DNA of 39,235 nucleotides from Candidatus Aenigmatarchaeota archaeon (GTDB taxonomy: Archaea; Aenigmatarchaeota; Aenigmatarchaeia; GW2011-AR5; JACRAC01), in NCBI GenBank assembly GCA_016219465.1, contig JACRMW010000021.1:1-39235 (forward strand), given 5' to 3'. Under the pieces are notes generated by a model that saw only the letters and a list, made by a program, of their open reading frames with translations, did no database searches and was not told where the DNA came from. Position numbers and translations under genes: made by a program. This document shows positions 10,055-33,056 of this stretch, piece by piece (positions within the stretch are counted from its first letter, which is position 1; each line of letters opens with the position of its first letter).

Positions 10055-10582
10055 ATGAACAGCAATTCAGGTTATGGCGAGAAGATAGAAATAGAATTCA
10101 GGCGCATTCCTATTGATGTTCTCAGGAAACAAAACAGCAGGGAAATAAAAGATTTCTGTATTTATGTTATTGAAATAGCAGGATCTCTTGGCGCAAAAAA
10201 ATATACAAAATATTGCTGCAAAAGAGATGGTGATGAAAAGTGTCCTTTTGCAGTATATCAGCCAGTTCATTCATCAGGCACTGTTGTCACAAACAAAGAC
10301 AGAAGGCTTGAAGCTTTTCGCGCATATATATATTCTCCAGAGAAAATGAAGAAATGCCAGGATAATGATACTGCTGCATTGGCAATAAGAACACGATTAA
10401 GAAACGAGCCATTGAACAGCCGCATTTTTGTTGAAGATAGTGATGGCAGAATAAACCTATATCTGGCAGATGTTCTAAATTCTCCAAGAAGTGTAGCGCA
10501 TAGCTATTTTTCAAAATCGACTAAAACAGACGCTGGTAGAAAACTGAATTTTATGAGAGGAAGGACTAAACGAGGAATTTGA
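10055..10582 (+). CDS. hypothetical protein
   Basis: 175-aa ORF. The stop codon lies inside repeat atttgatacgtcata (also at 20126-20156). Confidence 0.4.
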   Translation: MNSNSGYGEKIEIEFRRIPIDVLRKQNSREIKDFCIYVIEIAGSLGAKKYTKYCCKRDGDEKCPFAVYQPVHSSGTVVTNKDRRLEAFRAYIYSPEKMKKCQDNDTAALAIRTRLRNEPLNSRIFVEDSDGRINLYLADVLNSPRSVAHSYFSKSTKTDAGRKLNFMRGRTKRGI

Positions 10583-10652
10583 TACGTCATATCATCAGTC
10601 TTTTCACAAAAGCTCTATTGAACTATTTATGTGAAGAAATGCAATATCTTTT

Positions 10653-11727: not shown

Positions 11728-11852
11728 AGGACTTGAATGACAGGTATTTTAGTCAAAGTCCTTATTGAGAACTTTCACATGGTGTACACAAAGACCTTTA
11801 GTCTTTGTGTACAGCGTGTAAAAAGACTTCAGAATACCTGAAGTCTTTTTAC
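11728..11852 (+). repeat. hairpin repeat family H6 (about 98 nt shared with 32959-33056) plus one extra 15-bp hairpin
   Basis: 13-bp stem tgtacacaaagac/gtctttgtgtaca (11783-11813); 15-bp stem gtaaaaagacttcag/ctgaagtctttttac (11818-11852). Confidence 0.9.
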
Positions 11853-13325: not shown

Positions 13326-14153
13326 ATGAAAAGAATATTTGTTGCTGGATTTGCAGTGATTTTATTATTCATAATAATCCAACAGCCTGCTCATGCTGAC
13401 GAGGATAAATGCAGGCAGTGGTTTAATGACGTTGTCAAGACTTCTATAAAGAATGCCGGTTTGGAATATTCTGAGAAATTAGGGGCTTTTACAGCAGCTA
13501 TTTTCCAGTGCGGCGAGAACGGCAAACAATCGTGGTGCAAGCTTCGTGAAAGGGCGGCAAACAAATGCTGGATAAATTCATATGTTGGCGCAGGAGGGGC
13601 AATGCAATTCATGCCAACGACATGGAGTGGCACAGGCATTCCAAGCTCTGCATGCATCAGACTGGCATCATCCTCAAGATTCAAGGATGTTGATTATATG
13701 TGCGGACCAAGACTTTCAAATTGCGCGCAAGAAGCATGGTCTGAGTGGGTAAATGAGCATGGATTTGATACTAAAGACATTCCGCCAAAAAATCTGGTGC
13801 TGAATTATTATTATAAAAAGCGGGCAGAACGAATTGAGAAAATAAAAAAGGATTTAGCGCCTTGTTTTAAGACAATGGCTGCTGGTGAAAGAAACTGGAA
13901 AAATGGCTATAGAACAGATGGAGATGGCGATGGAATAACAGACATAACAAATATCTATGACAGTTTTGCATCAGGAGCAGCATATCTGTCAGCAATACTT
14001 GCTTCAAATGATGATATTGCTTCTGCAGCAGGAGAATATAATGGAGGGCCAAATTGGCAGAATTTTGCAGAATCAAGAACATATTCAGCCAGAGTAACCG
14101 CTTGCTATAATGATTTTGTGAAAAATAGATTTTTTGTTGTAGATAAAGTATAG
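13326..14153 (+). CDS. secreted lytic transglycosylase (SLT)-like protein
   Basis: Signal peptide ending AHA-DE. GAGGAMQFMPTTW and EYNGGPNW resemble SLT motifs (GLMQ...T, AYNAG). Confidence 0.6.
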   Translation: MKRIFVAGFAVILLFIIIQQPAHADEDKCRQWFNDVVKTSIKNAGLEYSEKLGAFTAAIFQCGENGKQSWCKLRERAANKCWINSYVGAGGAMQFMPTTWSGTGIPSSACIRLASSSRFKDVDYMCGPRLSNCAQEAWSEWVNEHGFDTKDIPPKNLVLNYYYKKRAERIEKIKKDLAPCFKTMAAGERNWKNGYRTDGDGDGITDITNIYDSFASGAAYLSAILASNDDIASAAGEYNGGPNWQNFAESRTYSARVTACYNDFVKNRFFVVDKV

Positions 14154-14280
14154 ACTTTATCTTCATGGTGAATATAGACTTTATCTTCATGGTGAATATA
14201 TATTCAACTGAAGATTCAGGTCAGGTTTGCTGACCATGAATCTGCAACATTAGTGGACTTTCAAAGAAAGTCCACTTTCT
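14146..14280 (+). repeat. composite hairpin element family H1, copy A, with an internal 24-nt duplication
   Basis: tatagactttatcttcatggtgaa occurs twice (14149-14172, 14173-14196), followed by ggtcaggtttgctgacc and gtggactttcaaagaaagtccac. Confidence 0.9.
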
Positions 14281-14702
14281 TGTTGTAATTCATATTCAGG
14301 CAAGATTCCTTGATCTGCACAAGCGCTGAGGGCAGCTGAATTCTTATTTGACTGAAGAAATCGTGAATATTCTCCCTTGCTTACGTTGTCATCTCCTTTT
14401 TCAATCCCTTTTCCATAACAAATATCAATAAACTGCTTAAATCCTTTAAGATAGGTTTCATGAGTTTTCTTTCCTAACTCACTCCAGTCTTTTTTTATTC
14501 TTTTAATATCATCTTTCTTCATTTTCTCAAACTCTTCTTTATTCTTAGGACAACCGTTTTTCAGTTCGTCTTCAAACAATCTATATACTCTCCTGCCTTC
14601 TGGACCTAGTTGTTTTGCCATTTCATCTATACTGCCTGCATAACATGGGGTTGTTGTCATGGAAAACATAAGCGCGTATGGAGCAATTTCTCTTACTTTC
14701 AT
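14250..14702 (-). CDS. hypothetical secreted Lys/Glu-rich protein
   Basis: 150-aa ORF with a hydrophobic N-terminus. The last 9 codons are encoded by the H1 hairpin. Confidence 0.4.
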   Translation of the reverse strand: MKVREIAPYALMFSMTTTPCYAGSIDEMAKQLGPEGRRVYRLFEDELKNGCPKNKEEFEKMKKDDIKRIKKDWSELGKKTHETYLKGFKQFIDICYGKGIEKGDDNVSKGEYSRFLQSNKNSAALSACADQGILPEYELQQESGLSLKVH

Positions 14703-19355: not shown

Positions 19356-19832
19356 TTATTTTCTTGGTATTCTATTCAAAAGTCTTGATGCCCATGGCTT
19401 ATAATTCGGATTTTGCAATCCTTTTCCTTTGCATGCCTGTTTTTGTATAATCTCAGCTAATCTATACATTCTGAATCTGGAGAATACTAGAACATTGTTA
19501 ATAGAATCACATTCTTTATAGACTATGATTGTAGGAAAATCTTTGATATATGAACAAGGATTGTTTCTCAGAGAATCAAATTTCTCTCTTTCTATAAAAT
19601 AAAGGATCTTACCATGGAATAGATAATTATCAGCTAAGTAGTTCTGTTCTGTTAATGTGCCTTTTCCTTCACCATCAATAAAAATAATAAGCTGATGATT
19701 TATACAGCAAGTTTCAAGTATAGACAAAGGTGTCAACCCGCCCTTTTTATCAATATCATAGTATTTATCAACTGTCTCTGCATAAAGACCATTTTTTAGA
19801 AGACATGTTTTTATGTCGCATAATTTCTGCAT
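19356..19832 (-). CDS. hypothetical alpha/beta protein (loose resemblance to nucleoside 2-deoxyribosyltransferase/TIR-like folds)
   Basis: The track ORF 19356..20003 overlaps tRNA exon 2. The first ATG after the tRNA is at 19832 (MQKLCD). The motif LIIFIDGEGKGTLTEQNY is reminiscent of the D-x-G-T-x-x-E pattern. Confidence 0.4.
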   Translation of the reverse strand: MQKLCDIKTCLLKNGLYAETVDKYYDIDKKGGLTPLSILETCCINHQLIIFIDGEGKGTLTEQNYLADNYLFHGKILYFIEREKFDSLRNNPCSYIKDFPTIIVYKECDSINNVLVFSRFRMYRLAEIIQKQACKGKGLQNPNYKPWASRLLNRIPRK

Positions 19833-19943
19833 TTTTTCTTTTGTGTGCCAGTCACCAAGAATTAGAATCTTGAGACTGCGAATGAGAATAAGATAATCCG
19901 TTTCCTTTTTCTTCAGTTCATTTCTTATTTGTGAATTTCGTAA

Positions 19944-20409
19944 AGCCCCCGGAGGGAATCGAACCCCCAACCTTTTGATATCATGAAAATAGAATATTTT
20001 CATGATCCAGAAAAGCTTTTGCTTTTCTAGAATCTCAAAGAAGTGGAAGCTTCTTTGAGCATGAAAATACTCATTTACAATTCCGAGAATGTTTTATTTT
20101 CGGAAAACACTCGCTCATCACAAGATTTTGATACGTCATACCACCAGTCTTTTCATGGTGGACATGCGTCCACCTGAAAATTCAAGTCAATTTCATTGAC
20201 TATGAATTTGACCGATGGATACGTGGTCAAATATGATTTGACCCGAATCTTCAAAATGACATATTGTCATTTTAGAAGATACACGAAATCTTTTCACATT
20301 ATTATTTTTCTTGCTCGCAATATCAAATACAAGTCAAACGCTCTATTCTCCTCAAGCGAACGCTTTCGCGCTAGACACGCTCGCTTGAACCAGATTGAGC
20401 TACGGAGGC
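19944..20409 (-). tRNA. tRNA-Thr(UGU) with two introns: 43 nt in the D-loop and about 348 nt at the canonical 37/38 position
   Basis: Exons 20409-20388, 20344-20328 and 19979-19944 join to a 75-nt cloverleaf: GCCUCCG UA GCUC AAUCUGGUUA GAGC G UUUGA CUUGUAA UCAAA AGGUU GGGGG UUCGAUU CCCUC CGGGGGC U. All stems pair, with G-U wobbles at 4:69 and 50:64. No encoded CCA. Confidence 0.7.
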
Positions 20410-20748
20410 AAATCTCTGATTTGTCTCGTATCTTGAAAACCTTATTTGTTTTCAATCTACGGAGGCATTATCTGACTCACTTACAAATATATTATATTAA
20501 GGAATAAAAAGATATGTATAGTCGCAGTCATAACAAACTAGAACAATATGAATGGTTATATAGCAAGCAGATGTGATAGGCAGTGTTTTCAGTCTCCTGG
20601 AACAGGAATTTAGAAATGCTGATGTACTGCTAATGTATGATTGCTTCAGGTTGAGGGCTTATAAAGAAAATGAGAATCCATATACAGAAGTGACCGGCCT
20701 TGTGCAGCCTTTTGTGAAGTTATAAAGATTATTTGCTTGTTTCACTAT

Positions 20749-22329
20749 ATGCAATATGATATAATATTCATAAGCGGAGAAAAACTTTTTGACCATTCGC
20801 TATGCGGCATAGCAATTCTGAAGAAGCTTATGGAAAAGCGAGGATATTCTGTTGGTGTGATTGAAGAGCCTAAGAAAGAGTCTGATGTTCTGAAATTAGG
20901 AAAGCCCAGGCTGTTCTTTGGGATTGGGACTGGCTGTATAGATTCCATGGTAAGGAATTATACTCCGCTTAACAAGAAAAGGACTGAAATAGAAAGGCTT
21001 AAATTTGTCCAGACAATTCCTGACAGAGCTTTGCTAGTATACTGCAATTGGATAAAGAGACATTTCAAGGATTCTGTGCTTGTAATAGGAGGTGTTGAAG
21101 CTTCTCTCCGGCGCCTGACACACTATGACTATTGGGACAACAAGCTCAGGCGATCTATACTCCTTGAATCACGGGCTGACATATTAGTTTATGGATGTGG
21201 TGAAAAACAGATTGAAGAGATAACAAAGCGTGTCAGAGAAAAGAAGGATCTGAAAGGAATTGCAGGAACCTGTGTCAGATCAAGAGAGGTTCCAGATGGT
21301 TTTACAATGCTTCCAAGCTACGAAGAATTGTTAAAATCCAAGAACAATTTCTGCGATATGCAGAATCTTCTTTCAAATGATGAAAATCTTTGCCAAAAAA
21401 CAGACAAAAGTTTTGTGCTTCAATACAAAAGCCCTGTTTATACAACAGAAGATATTGATGAATATTATGGCTTGGATTTTACAAGAAAAGCTGTGGATGA
21501 CCGCACAAGAGGATTTGAATTCAGCATAGTCACTCATAGAGGATGCATAGGAAACTGCAATTTCTGTTCACTGCGGTTAACAATGGGAAGCAAGATAATC
21601 TCGCGTTCAGAAGAATCTATATTAAAAGAAATAAAGCATATCACAACACTGCCCCATTTTTCAGGAAATATAGATGATCTTGGAGGACCTTCTGCAAACA
21701 TGTATGGAATGGACTGCTCTGTGTGCAACAAAGACTGTATAAAGTGCCAGAATCTTGACAAAAGCCATAAAAAGTTGATAGAGCTCATGAAGAAAGCAAG
21801 GAATATTCATGGCATTAAAAAAATATTTGTAAGAAGCGGGGTACGATATGATCTGGCGCCAAAAGATTATCTCAAAGAACTTGTAAAGTTTCATGTTTCA
21901 GGAAAATTAAAGATAGCTCCTGAACACGTGAATATGCGTGTATTGCAGCTTATGAATAAAGACATGGGCAGTCTTGATGATTTTATAAAAGAATTCAATG
22001 AATTAAGCAAATGTGACCTTGGCTTTTATTTTATAACAGCGCATCCTGGTTCAACAATGAAAGAAGCGCATGAACTTGCAGATGCTGTCAAAAAGCTGAG
22101 AAATGCTGAATCTGTCCAGATATTTACCCCTACTCCTATGACAATCTCTACCTGCATGTATTATACAGGAATGAATCCAAGGACATATGAAAAAGTTCAT
22201 GTTCCTCTAACATACAGGGAAAAGAAAGAGCAGAAACGGGTATTGCTATTGCCAACTAATAAAACAAGTCAGGGTATATGGCAGGGTATATGGAAAAGAC
22301 AAGAATATACTAAATATATTAGAAGATGA
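20749..22329 (+). CDS. YgiQ/UPF0313-family radical SAM protein
   Basis: N-terminal YDIIFISGEKLFDHSLCGIAIL...GYSVGVIEEP (YgiQ N-domain) and CIGNCNFC (CxxxCxxC). Confidence 0.8.
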   Translation: MQYDIIFISGEKLFDHSLCGIAILKKLMEKRGYSVGVIEEPKKESDVLKLGKPRLFFGIGTGCIDSMVRNYTPLNKKRTEIERLKFVQTIPDRALLVYCNWIKRHFKDSVLVIGGVEASLRRLTHYDYWDNKLRRSILLESRADILVYGCGEKQIEEITKRVREKKDLKGIAGTCVRSREVPDGFTMLPSYEELLKSKNNFCDMQNLLSNDENLCQKTDKSFVLQYKSPVYTTEDIDEYYGLDFTRKAVDDRTRGFEFSIVTHRGCIGNCNFCSLRLTMGSKIISRSEESILKEIKHITTLPHFSGNIDDLGGPSANMYGMDCSVCNKDCIKCQNLDKSHKKLIELMKKARNIHGIKKIFVRSGVRYDLAPKDYLKELVKFHVSGKLKIAPEHVNMRVLQLMNKDMGSLDDFIKEFNELSKCDLGFYFITAHPGSTMKEAHELADAVKKLRNAESVQIFTPTPMTISTCMYYTGMNPRTYEKVHVPLTYREKKEQKRVLLLPTNKTSQGIWQGIWKRQEYTKYIRR

Positions 22330-22989: not shown

Positions 22990-23268
22990 GTTTGAACCCT
23001 CATATTATTCTTATTATGAATGAGTTTCAAACATAAGGCGAAACTTGTTTTCACCTCTCGTTTTTGAAACCCAATATTATTTTTGCGGTTTAATAAATCT
23101 TCAACTATTCACATAGCTAGAGATTTCATTGATAAAACCCCACTCTATCATTATATATGTCAAGAAGCTATTTATACCTGAATCTGACTTTATGGAAATA
23201 TATCTATCAAATTCAGGTTTATAGTGAAAACTGCCTCATCCAAACTCTAGAGCGTTTTCATTGTAGGT

Positions 23269-23352
23269 AAAGTATAGACTTTATCTTCATGGTGAACATG
23301 TGTTCACCTGAATCTGCAACATTAGTGGACTTTCGAAGAAAGTCCACTTTCT
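23269..23352 (+). repeat. composite hairpin element family H1, copy B (lacks the middle hairpin)
   Basis: aaagtatagactttatcttcatggtgaacatgtgttcacctgaatctgcaacattagtggactttcgaagaaagtccactttct. Confidence 0.9.
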
Positions 23353-23360
23353 TGGATATT

Positions 23361-27414: not shown

Positions 27415-30400
27415 ACATAGCTTGCTCTATAGACATTTCCCTGGTCATCAATTATCCATCCTGTTGAAGAATCAATAAAATCCATGCTTCTGAATCTTGT
27501 ATTTGTTCCTGATGATTGTTGGGTCCAGGTTGTTCCACCATTTGTTGTGTTTAATATAATCCCACTCTCGCCAGCTATCCATCCTATATCTGAGTTGATA
27601 AAACGGGCATTACGCAATACAGCTGTTACACCAGATGATTGTTGGGTCCAGGTTGTTCCGCTATTTGTTGTTTTCAGGATTGCTCCGCTATATCCAACTA
27701 TCCAGCCTGTGTTTGAATCTATGAAATAAAAATTCAGAGGATATGCAGTTCCAATAGATTGCTGAGTCCAGGTTGTTCCGCCATTTGTTGTTTTATATAC
27801 ACTATTATCAGAAAGTAGCCATCCTGTATTTGAATCAATGAACTGAATATTGTTATAATTGTTATTTGTTCCTGTAGGCAGTTGTGTCCAGGTTGTTCCG
27901 CTATTTGTTGTTTTCAGGACAGTTCCTCCATATCCAACTGCCCAGCCTGTGTTTGAGTTTATGAAATAGACATCAATAAGATAGTTAGATGTTCCTGATG
28001 ATTGTGATGTCCATGTAACGCCGCCATTTGTTGTCTTTAGAATTGCTCCAGTTGCGCCAACTGCCCAGCCTGTATTTGAATCTATGAAAAAAACATTGTA
28101 AAGATATGCTGATCCAGAAGACTGTCTTGTCCATGTAGCGCCACTGTCTATTGTCTTGAATATATTTGCTCCGCCAGCAATCCAGCCTGTGTTTGAATCT
28201 GTAAAATCAATTCCAACAGCTGCAAAATTAATTGATGTTCCTCCTATTCTTGACCAAGTATTTGCAATAGGTGTTGTTACAGATTCTGTACTGCTAGTGT
28301 TTGATGAACTGGATGAAGATGATGACGAACTGCTTGATGATGAGCTGGTTTGCTGGACAGTGCATAATGCTATATCATTGATATCTGTTGATTCTGCTGT
28401 TGACGGACAGAATTCCATTGATTTGTTTCCTAATGGTGCCAGGAATTCAGAATATCTTGCATTTACACGTCCTCCTCTTCGTGTATCCTCTGCCCGCGTG
28501 CCTGCAATAACTAATGCATATTTTCCTCTGTAGTGTGTTGCATGAACTATTACAAAATTCCTTCCTGGCCATTCTTGCCCCAAGCCAGGTGTTGCTGCAC
28601 TGCATTTGTATGGGAAATCTCCAAGACTGGCAAGCATTGAAACATCATCATTTACACAAGGCCCTCCTACTAGTATAATATTATCTGTTCTTGGTGTTGT
28701 TGCATGTTCTGTATCTAATCGTGATGTAGTTATACCTTCTGTACCTGAAACATCTATACCAGCTATGTTGTCAGAAGCAGCTGCTCTTTCACCTATAACT
28801 GTCTTAAAACCATATGAATTTCCTGTTCTTAATATAAGATTATCCATGACAGTGATTGCATAAGGCTGTATTGAAACTTCTACAACAGTGTCCTGACCAG
28901 CTGTTATTGAAACATCTTGTTCAGAAGTTTCATATCCAGATAAATCAAGCTTAAGCCTATGGGTTCCTGGATTAATTCCTGGAATTGTAATGCCCTCGCT
29001 TCTTGTTAGTTCACTATGTGTTGCAAATGCAGTTATGCTGCTGGCTCGTGTGCTTGCTGTTGCACCATCTGGCCATGTTCTTACAACAAGCCTTCCTTGT
29101 GTAGGAGAGCAGCTGCTTGAGCTTTCAGGAGGGGTGTTTCTCAGACTAGTGTATAAATTATCAACACCACATGTTCCTGAATATACAACATTTCTGGTTT
29201 GTGTTGTAGGCACATCTGTTGGACAATTCAATGGATTCCATGTTCCTCGTGTCCATGAGTTTACGCAGCAGGTTTCTGATGATATTGGCCTGTTTGCATC
29301 TGCAAGACATTGTGGATTATTCTTTACAGGTGTTCTTGCTCTTGTATATGTTACAGTGCCATCACTGCTAGTGCACTGACCCCATGTTTCTGGTGTCCAT
29401 GAATCTGTGCAGCTTATTGAAAGAGTGAATGAAACATCAACCAACTGGCCTGGATTGACAGACACTATTGATGATTCTGCGCTGAATTCTGATCTTGATG
29501 CCCTGACAGTGTATGTTTTTGCAGCTCCTATTGGATTTGATGAAAGATCTATTCTTGCAATTCCTGCTGCATTTGTCTGTGTTGTTGCCAATAAAGCAGC
29601 GCCTTCATAGACCTCTATTGTTGATATAAAATCATTATAATATGTTCCTTGTGGATGTGTTACAGTGACACGGATTGAATTTGTATTGTTTATTAGTGTG
29701 AATGATCTTGAGAGTGTCCTGCCAAATGATACATCATCTGCGCTTATTGCAACAGAGCCTGCTGCATCATAAAAACCTGTTTTTGATAATCTTATAGAAT
29801 GAGTTCCTTGCTGAACAATTGCGCTTGCTGTTGAAGTTCCTATTAATGAATTGTCAATATAGACAGATGCCTCGCTTGGTGTTGATGATACTGACAATGC
29901 TGCTCCTGTTGCAGCGCATGCGCAAACGCCTGCAGAATCTCTTGTTATCAATACACTTGTTCTTGAGAATTGGCTGCAGGTTGCAGGAGTCTTTAGCATA
30001 TCTATAGCGCATAATAATGTATCAGAAGATCCTGCTATTGCATATAATCTTCTGTTTGTTTCATCAATATAAACCAGTGCATTGTTTGAAGAATATCTTG
30101 AATTAAATCCATTAACAGCTGTGCTTAGAAATGAATCTGTTGATGCTGCCTTTGAAAGAACTATGATATCTGTTATTCCAGAAGATACCTCGTTTGTAAA
30201 TTTGCTGCTTGTTATTCTGTACACGCCTGCAAGCTCATTTGTCCTTGATTGTTCTCTTGATGAAATGCCTGTTTCCAAAACTATTGTATAAGGAGCAGGA
30301 GTTGTTCTAGCATCCTGCATAAAGCCATCTATTCCAGAGCCGATTGCATATATTTGCCCTGCTGGCGCGCTCTTGTCTCCTGCAGGAACTGATAAAAGAG

Positions 30401-31531: not shown

Positions 31532-31810
31532 AAATGACTTTCTTCGAAAGTCGTTTTGTTCTTGTATAGGAAAGTATATGACATATTATTATTTCCATTG
31601 CAAGACACGCAGAAAGCAAAGCTTTCTGGTGCACCAAACAACGTATGTTGTTTGTGTGTTTAGAGGAATTGCGAAGCAATTCCTCTTTGTTCTTGTAAAT
31701 AAAGTATAGACTTTATCTTCATGGTGAACATGTGTTCACCTGAAGATTCAGGTCAGCTTTGCTGACCATAATCTGCAACATTGTGGACTTTCGAAGAAAG
31801 TCCACTTTCT
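31532..31810. repeat. compound array: flip-loop hairpin (31532-31563), H2 inverted copy (31611-31686) and H1 copy C (31701-31810)
   Basis: ggtgaacatgtgttcacc (31723-31740), ggtcagctttgctgacc (31751-31767), gtggactttcgaagaaagtccac (31783-31805). Confidence 0.9.
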
Positions 31811-31831
31811 AGCTCGTGTTGTTCGCTTGAA

Positions 31832-32958: not shown

Positions 32959-33056
32959 AGGACTTTGAATAACATGTGTTTTGGTCAAAGTCCTTATTGA
33001 GAACTTTCACATGGTGTACACAAAGACCTTTAGTCTTTGTGTACAGCGTGTAAAAA
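32959..33056 (+). repeat. hairpin repeat family H6, copy 2
   Basis: About 75 nt are identical to 11751-11825, including the 13-bp hairpin at 33015-33045. Confidence 0.9.

Follow-up and report, generated by a model that had tools for sequence, protein, structure and literature searches.

The stretch of DNA considered here, the 39,235 nucleotides (nt) of contig JACRMW010000021.1 from a Candidatus Aenigmatarchaeota archaeon and hereafter the window, carries on its minus strand a gene for tRNA-Thr(UGU) that is broken into three exons, by 44 nt in the D-loop and by 348 nt in the anticodon loop, with a further hairpin element inserted near its 5′ end. The locus is probably a functional gene, the transcript of which is predicted to be spliced in cis. 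Between the window and the closest relative found, 0 of the 74 exon positions are changed, against 15 of 100 in the alignable core of the long intron, a disparity that speaks for a live gene.

The interrupted gene and its counterparts

Orthologs were sought by a metagenome scan for exact matches to the last 29 nt of the tRNA, which yielded 27 loci. Most are bacterial tRNAs, and two (L096 and L099) are homologs from archaea that contain long inserts. As L099 also bears a gene for a DUF655 protein 77% identical to that of the window, the contigs of the closest DUF655 homologs were fetched, and in the orthologous ones the tRNA-Thr is some 1–2 kb downstream of DUF655. The closest relative found, L109, is from an Aenigmatarchaeota metagenome-assembled genome (NCBI assembly GCA_043800495.1). 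Its DUF655 protein has 84% amino-acid identity to that of the window and the two genes upstream of the tRNA locus are syntenic. The comparison thus defined is of four distinct orthologous genes, those of the window, L109, L110 (L110 and L111 being from the same species as L099) and L096. The parts of the gene in the window, in order of transcription, are as follows.

20390–20409, minus strand: exon 1, tRNA nt 1–19 (5′ strand of the acceptor stem, 5′ strand of the D-stem and the D-loop to G18 G19), identical to L109
20346–20389, minus strand: D-loop intron between G19 and U20, 44 nt, 55% GC, with a relaxed bulge-helix-bulge (BHB) motif
20328–20345, minus strand: exon 2, tRNA nt 20–37 (U20 A21, 3′ strand of the D-stem, 5′ strand of the anticodon stem, and C32 to A37 with the anticodon UGU)
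19980–20327, minus strand: intron at the canonical position 37/38, 348 nt, the ends and three internal blocks of which are homologous to the 106-nt intron of L109
19944–19979, minus strand: exon 3, tRNA nt 38–73 (A38, 3′ strand of the anticodon stem, variable loop, T-arm, 3′ strand of the acceptor stem and discriminator U)

When the minus-strand segments 20409–20390, 20345–20328 and 19979–19944 are joined, ARAGORN identifies the product as tRNA-Thr(tgt) with the anticodon loop CUUGUAA. An earlier note on this DNA had assembled the same tRNA from three minus-strand segments, and the exons are where it had placed them, though the cloverleaf of 75 nt that it counted shrinks to a mature tRNA of 74 nt, discriminator U included, because the D-loop of L109 fixes the first insert at 44 nt. 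In the spliced tRNA a regular acceptor stem, which includes one G.U pair, is accompanied by a D-arm, an anticodon arm and a T-arm with GGGGG/CCCUC and the T loop UUCGAUU; CCA is not encoded in exon 3. With their inserts removed, all four distinct genes yield a 74-nt tRNA-Thr(tgt). The L110 and L096 tRNAs differ from that shared by the window and L109 in having U6 (in a G.U pair with G67), at position 26, and in having C28–G42 for U28–A42, the last being a compensatory change of the anticodon stem. Looked at as a possible pseudogene, the window copy has no stem or invariant-nucleotide mutation relative to its ortholog in L109, a result still compatible with a very recent loss of splicing. In the raw window neither ARAGORN without introns nor Rfam at gathering score reports a tRNA; with introns allowed ARAGORN finds the ends of the gene, but it misplaces the intron and misnames the isotype.

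The long intron and its predicted splice sites

All four orthologs have an insert at exactly 37/38. Its length is 55 nt in L096, 106 nt in L109, 129 nt in L110 and, exactly as the earlier note had it, 348 nt in the window (20327–19980), about three times that of the L109 intron. That note had also judged the insert larger than known archaeal tRNA introns, and so it is when set against the range of 11–129 nt given in a 2014 review (PMC4090602); a non-exhaustive search of the literature found no report of an archaeal tRNA intron longer than 129 nt.

What is constant amid this variation in length is the 3′ end of the intron. The last six intron nt before A38 are CAGGAG in L109, UAAGAG in L110, CAUGAG in L096 and CAUGAU in the window, so that the signature YANGAN|A, i.e., [C/U]-A-N-G-A-N before A38, is present in all four. 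The BHB geometry was taken from the canonical case, with exon nt p-5 to p-2 pairing with intron nt n-2 to n-5 and with bulges p-1, p | i1 and n-1, n | q. In each of the four orthologs n-2 is G, n-4 is A and n-5 is C or U, and these pair with C32, U34 and G35. The central helix with C32 U33 U34 G35 is perfect in L109 and L110 and has a U.U mismatch in L096 and the window. The bulges are U36 A37 | i1 and A(n-1) N(n) | A38 throughout; in the window they are UA|U and AU|A, of 3 nt each, the outer helix is the anticodon stem with 5 of 5 base pairs (bp), and the central helix reads C-G, UxU, U-A, G-C.

How does an intron of this kind come to be so long? The blocks that align with L109 are 20327–20301, 20132–20079 and 20059–20034, with 85% identity over 100 positions, and in the second of them a GUGAUGA is conserved and a hairpin differs from its L109 counterpart by compensatory changes. 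By this alignment the 348-nt intron is an L109-type intron plus three hairpin-rich stretches that occur in the window only.

20133–20300, minus strand: 168-nt insertion, a gap in the alignment with L109, and a diverged copy of an intergenic hairpin-array repeat
20060–20078, minus strand: stretch of about 19 nt that is unalignable to the L109 intron and holds the upstream copy (20069–20060) of the repeat TATTTTCATG
19980–20033, minus strand: 54-nt 3′ end with two perfect hairpins (20031–20006 and 20006–19980), its last 6 nt, CAUGAU, being the splice-site partner

Judged by similarity, at least the largest of these stretches is derived from the genome's intergenic hairpin-array repeats. The 168-nt insertion, which is in the loop of the conserved hairpin CAAGA...UCUUG, aligns with the composite arrays at 14130–14282, 23254–23354 and 31686–31812, and with three compensatory stem changes (GGTGAAC/GTTCACC to GGTGGAC/GTCCACC and GGTCAG/CTGACC to AGTCAA/TTGACT). 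Within it 20139–20203 is a member of the family at 14173, 23273 and 31705, and at one end of the insertion region 20123–20157 resembles 10577–10607, which bears out the earlier suggestion that the intron consists in part of intergenic hairpin repeats. As the copy in the intron is only 65–87% identical to its relatives, the 168-nt insertion is probably not very recent. All seven consecutive hairpins that had been listed for the intron are present, together with an eighth at 20081–20105. The fold of the 348 nt has a free energy of -121.2 kcal/mol; shuffled sequences give -71.4 +/- 4.4 (z = -11.3), and none of 100 is as good.

The arrays at 14130–14282, 23254–23354, 31686–31812 and 10577–10607 each have three to four stem-loops and are downstream of genes, and their copies differ by compensatory stem changes. 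Other repeats in the window are a 67-nt tandem repeat of 2.6 copies at 434–610, a 92-nt dispersed pair that is 96% identical (11733–11824 and 32965–33056) and a periodicity of 117–123 nt at 27448–28210, within an open reading frame (ORF) of 1045 residues for a surface protein with PSII_BNR/PEGA domains.

The GUGAUGA of the intron is box C-like. It is at 20115–20121 (minus strand) in the window and at about 3677–3683 in L109, just 3′ of the hairpin CAAGA...UCUUG, and 5′ of that hairpin is a GA-containing strand (GCGAG or GUGAG); the two may together constitute a candidate K-turn protein-binding site. By eye, the window and L109 intron sequences contain no CUGA D box partner and no guide. Rfam reports nothing in the window at gathering score, and nothing intron-like (group I/II) to E = 10 in 19400–21000.

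The D-loop intron

The D-loop of L109 reads AAUCUGGUA, from which the insert in the window is 44 nt (20389–20346), or the same shifted by one U, rather than the 43 nt of the earlier note. It is absent from L109, L110 and L096, all of which read GCTCAATCTGGTAGAGC. With a 5′ cut after G19 the junctions are exactly in register for a BHB, and their position in such a motif, along with the absence of the insert from the three other orthologs, sustains the proposal that the D-loop has an intron. The outer helix comprises A14xA21 and then four D-stem pairs, and the central helix A15xG, U16-A, C17-G and U17a.G, i.e., 3 bp and an A.G mismatch. The bulges, GG|U and AA|U, are of 3 nt, and the inner helix has 11 contiguous bp.

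How much is such a match worth? Even in a loose version the test lets through about 300 of the 8.3 million junction pairs of shuffled windows, or some 3.6e-5 for each. As a detector across the window the loose scan was rejected: it gave about 400 matches versus about 300 in shuffles, the motif alone being non-diagnostic. Thus the motif is highly non-random at junction pairs fixed by homology and meaningless genome-wide, and it is because homology dictates the D-loop junctions that the match there is informative. The D-loop insert recurs neither elsewhere in the window nor in any of the fetched loci, and at 55% its GC content exceeds that of the long intron (33%) and of the leader insert described below (28%). 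We conclude that it is a genuine, lineage-specific intron of relaxed-BHB type, predicted to be spliced, and its absence from the three other orthologs points to a recent gain.

The duplicated 5′ end

The earlier note had also remarked that the first 10 nt of the tRNA are duplicated 57 nt upstream, just downstream of a TATA-like sequence. Both observations are sound. The sequence GCCTCCGTAG occurs exactly twice in the window, at 20409–20400 and 20466–20457, and an AT-rich box precedes the upstream copy.

20485–20500, minus strand: TATA-like promoter box TTAATATAATATATTT, AT-rich, its centre 26.5 nt upstream of 20466, in a region that aligns with the promoter region of L109
20457–20466, minus strand: first copy of GCCTCCGTAG, at the position of the ancestral tRNA 5′ end and the predicted start of a 57-nt leader
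20410–20456, minus strand: 47-nt hairpin element between nt 10 and 11, with arms at 20461–20448 and 20440–20427

The first copy is taken to mark the ancestral 5′ end because 20484–20467, upstream of it, is alignable to what immediately precedes the tRNA in L109, and because of the spacing of the TATA-like box; transcription would start near 20466. The 47-nt element lacks inverted repeats at its ends and occurs just once in the window. However, L099, L110 and L111 have a homologous unit at the same site, there in two tandem copies, each of which begins with that species' own version, GCCTCT.... In both cases the copies match their own tRNA at position 6, C6 in the window and U6 in L110, for which gene conversion, independent site-specific insertion and selection are candidate causes. 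L109, which is without the unit, may have lost it through recombination between the repeats. Kinship of the leader unit to the hairpin repeats is only suggested: 20417–20439 is 83% identical over 23 nt to the intron repeat at 20234–20256, with a rough chance estimate near 0.05. A possible leader–trailer pairing was set aside, as the 9-nt repeat ACAAATAAG common to the two is expected by chance at that length. Of the earlier alternatives for the duplication, an integration scar holds to the extent that there has been a 47-nt insertion with a 10-nt duplication within the gene; it is not a scar of att type, and the element is at the same site in a second species.

Predicted expression of the gene, and the alternatives

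The gene would be transcribed as one piece from the minus strand, with a start near 20466, some 26 nt beyond the TATA-like box. The transcript would bear a 57-nt leader, consisting of a copy of tRNA nt 1–10 and the 47-nt hairpin element once inserted at nt 10/11, and then exon 1, the 44-nt intron (19/20), exon 2, the 348-nt intron (37/38) and exon 3. RNase P or an equivalent enzyme would remove the leader at the second GCCUCCGUAG, the archaeal splicing endonuclease would cut both introns at their BHB motifs, an RNA ligase would join the exons, and CCA would be added afterwards. Neither a splicing endonuclease (EndA) nor an RtcB-type ligase is encoded among the ORFs of the 39-kb window. That the intron tolerates repeat insertions would follow from its two ends alone mattering for splicing.

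Several features weigh against a working gene. The 37/38 BHB of the window is imperfect, with U.U in its central helix, and its inner helix is non-contiguous, starting after two U.U mismatches. The perfect 12-bp terminal hairpin (20006–19980), whose 3′ arm is made up of the final 12 intron nt, ties up the strand that carries the 3′ splice site, and forcing the BHB costs 11.1 kcal/mol relative to the minimum free energy fold. In the D-loop BHB the central helix consists of just 3 pairs, one of them G.U. The insertions, moreover, may be so recent that exon decay would not yet be visible. Could this then be a recently inactivated gene, its exons intact and its splicing abolished by the 54-nt 3′ insertion, the 168-nt repeat or the D-loop insert? 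Another gene for tRNA-Thr(UGU), or tRNA-Thr(CGU/GGU) with wobble, would cover the need. This is the main rival, and it is unlikely without being negligible. Consistent with it are a minimum free energy fold that forms neither the anticodon stem nor the 37/38 central helix, the competition of the terminal 12-bp hairpin with splice-site pairing, three independent disruptions in one gene, and a downstream flank that is also replaced relative to L109 and L110. As modelled, however, minimum free energy, constrained folding and pair probabilities fail to discriminate on BHB formation, since forcing it costs 4.8 kcal/mol in L109, 17.2 in L110 and 16.4 in L096 and the predicted pair probabilities are near 0 in all orthologs, even those with perfect BHBs. 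The 5′ arm of the terminal hairpin also has an alternative partner, as the 10-nt TATTTTCATG is directly repeated at 20069–20060 and 19991–19982, and when the intron is folded by itself its minimum free energy structure pairs that arm with the upstream copy, leaving the 3′ terminus largely free. The absence of any T run of 5 or more (a possible terminator) from the whole transcript is weak evidence, about one being expected by chance at this composition. Against inactivation stand the unchanged exons beside an intron core diverged by 15%, which also make it unlikely that, as the earlier note wondered, the tRNA is being destroyed by repeat invasion. So do the in-register BHB at the D-loop insert, rare by chance, the reproduction of the conserved YANGAN|A by the new 3′ end of the intron, and the 65–87% identity of the intron repeat copy to its relatives, which suggests that the insertion is not very recent. 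There is also the need for a UGU anticodon to read ACA, UGU normally being the sole anticodon that does so efficiently. The evolutionary evidence being of more use here than the energy models, the gene is, all in all, considered most likely functional.

Is there a third intron? The first GCCUCCGUAG (20466–20457) would then be the real exon 1, the 57 nt to 20410 an intron at or before 10/11, and transcription leaderless from +1, as leaderless tRNA transcripts are in archaea that lack RNase P. Such a gene would fit a TATA-like box centred 26.5 nt upstream of a first copy that is itself at the ancestral 5′ end, and the match of both copies to their own tRNA in two species. Nevertheless it is very improbable: between the two 10-nt copies 0 of 11 equivalent junction pairs give BHB-like pairing, the central helix would, owing to the duplication, pair a sequence with itself, and the short ordinary leaders of L109 and L096 (about 12 and 6 nt, from TATA-to-tRNA spacing read by eye) imply 5′ processing in the clade. 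With no BHB-like pairing at those junctions and with such leaders in relatives, the simplest reading, and the most likely, is that the 47-nt insertion gives a 57-nt 5′ leader removed by RNase P rather than the third intron at 10/11 that the earlier note had entertained. More improbable still is either a split tRNA of the Nanoarchaeum type, its halves expressed separately, or a 348-nt insert that is a self-splicing group I intron. The intervening sequence is indeed long and highly structured, and group I introns exist in DPANN rRNA genes (PMC6125680). Yet Rfam has no group I or II match even at E <= 10, and the orthologs have homologous introns of 55–129 nt in cis at the same site, which tells also against the split tRNA of the earlier note. 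Furthermore, the halves are colinear and 348 nt apart with no complementary GC-rich leader/trailer pair for trans-splicing, and by eye no well-placed TATA box precedes exon 3.

A bolder reading would make tRNA-Thr(UGU) a recurrent target of mobile hairpin modules. In at least 2 species one module would have been inserted at nt 10/11 of the coding region and have produced the 10-nt duplication, others would have entered the 37/38 intron, and the GC-rich D-loop intron would have been born from such an insertion that by chance formed a BHB with the D-stem. This is a long shot. If true, it would provide a dated, lineage-specific example of archaeal tRNA introns arising from hairpin elements, and BHB introns of about 350 nt would be shown to be processed.

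Interrupted genes in relatives

The relatives have peculiarities of their own. Introns at both 30/31 and 37/38 are present in L110 (7537–7837), L111 (2633–2933), L099 (minus strand, 878–578) and L096 (minus strand, about 6424–6221). In the L110-type genes and L096 respectively, the 30/31 intron is 98 or 75 nt and that at 37/38 is 129 or 55 nt, and between them is left a 7-nt micro-exon, ACUUGUA, with the whole anticodon inside. In both types the central helix of the 30/31 BHB, C25-R26-U27-C28/GAUG, is perfect and shows a change of A-U to G.U. As its outer helix uses C32–U34, the two introns must, on the predicted pairing, be removed sequentially. At a contig end, L093 (minus strand) has the 3′ part of a tRNA-Thr(UGU)-like gene, with CCA encoded and an intact anticodon arm, preceded by sequence unrelated to a D-arm; the contig is short, and this is possibly a further interrupted tRNA, from an unrelated organism.

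Host region and neighbouring genes

The window has a GC content of 36.7%, the host being described as mesophile-like, and its genes (MetRS, diphthamide synthase, SRP54, an XPD-type helicase, DUF655, an S-layer-like protein and a P-type ATPase) are an ordinary archaeal chromosomal set. The best relatives of the radical SAM gene adjoining the tRNA-Thr locus are from uncultured DPANN archaea, and those of the DUF655 protein are 84–86% identical, one being annotated as Candidatus Aenigmatarchaeota. On these grounds the window is taken to be part of the chromosome of a DPANN archaeon of the Aenigmatarchaeota. No tRNA-Thr was found near radical SAM homologs in the 80 genome loci examined, nor in the flanks of the more distant DUF655 homologs P0005, P0008, P0011 and P0015; the only exact match to the window DUF655 protein is on a 2-kb contig without tRNA-Thr. 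A scan of viral contigs for both exons gave 0 matches.

Downstream of the tRNA-Thr is a tyrosine recombinase gene, after about 70 nt in L109 (3886–4896) and 255 nt in L110 (8093–8413), and the two share this downstream flank at 84% over 151 nt. Since the family of the integrase near the L109 tRNA is widespread in archaea at <=55% identity, the recombinase region is probably an integrated element; for the same reason the integrase was unusable as a handle for further orthologs. The window flank after the tRNA (19943 onward) is unrelated to that of L109 or L110 and has an ORF from 19356 to about 19831 with no family match. On the other side, between the promoter of the tRNA and the radical SAM gene, 20570–20722 resembles in translation (58% over 51 residues) the C-terminal portion of what the L109 gene at 1975–2460 encodes, and seems to be the remnant of a gene; L109 is without it there. 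No partial 3′ copy of the tRNA, as might be att-like, was found elsewhere in the window.

Comparison with known systems

The consequences for annotation are practical. Standard tRNA finders miss the window gene fully, and therefore genomes of this DPANN lineage would be scored as without tRNA-Thr(UGU), in agreement with a published comment that the prediction of tRNA sets in DPANN is incomplete (PMC5829648). Splicing of the 348-nt intron, if it occurs, would extend the size range reported for tRNA introns cut by the endonuclease nearly threefold, and would show that repeat elements can settle in such introns without harm. Among the four orthologs the D-loop intron is in the window alone, the 30/31 intron with its micro-exon in two others, and the leader insertion in two, so that they form a small natural series in which to study how introns are gained and lost and which substrates DPANN splicing endonucleases accept.

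Multi-intron tRNAs with relaxed BHBs, including introns in the D-loop, are known from Thermoproteales, Thaumarchaeota, Asgard, some DPANN and Methanopyrus, and DPANN splicing endonucleases with an extra loop accompany more tRNA gene disruption (PMC5829648, PMC8450103, PMC11291895). The combination of a 37/38 intron with one in the D-loop is like that of, e.g., Methanopyrus kandleri tRNA-Glu, with its D-loop HBh′ and canonical introns. Also alike are a relaxed BHB with exact 3-nt bulges, the presence or absence of an intron between close relatives and, presumably, splicing by the archaeal endonuclease and ligase. Unlike in the known cases, the host is a mesophile-like Aenigmatarchaeota of 37% GC, and the canonical intron exceeds the upper bound of 129 nt (PMC4090602) by a factor of about 2.7 and is not a short GC-rich stem but AT-rich and modular.

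Split and tri-split tRNAs, as in Nanoarchaeum equitans and Caldivirga maquilingensis, are similarly fragmented at 37/38 with BHB-type joining, and the short middle piece of the tri-split ones has a parallel in the 7-nt anticodon micro-exon of L096 and L110. However, the pieces in the window are colinear, on one strand and within 466 nt, and its orthologs have shorter cis introns there. In Euryarchaeota the tRNA-Trp(CCA) intron, of about 65–105 nt, nests a box C/D guide RNA. It too is a long 37/38 intron with extra structured RNA, and GUGAUGA is present in the window and L109 introns, but here there is no CUGA D box, terminal C/D pairing or guide complementarity, and the extra length comes from repeat insertions and not from a guide RNA. 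As with repetitive extragenic palindrome-like repeats and miniature inverted-repeat transposable elements (MITEs), the intron, and probably the leader, hold hairpin modules also found downstream of window genes, and the leader insertion lies between the two copies of a 10-nt direct duplication. Unlike MITEs, no terminal inverted repeats or associated transposase are seen here and the copies have diverged with compensatory stem changes, and unlike MITEs in genes, insertions inside the tRNA intron and the coding region leave coding potential intact. The kind of system is thus known; what is new is the size of the intron, its make-up as a scaffold with nested hairpin-repeat insertions, the in-gene insertion with its duplication, and the host lineage.

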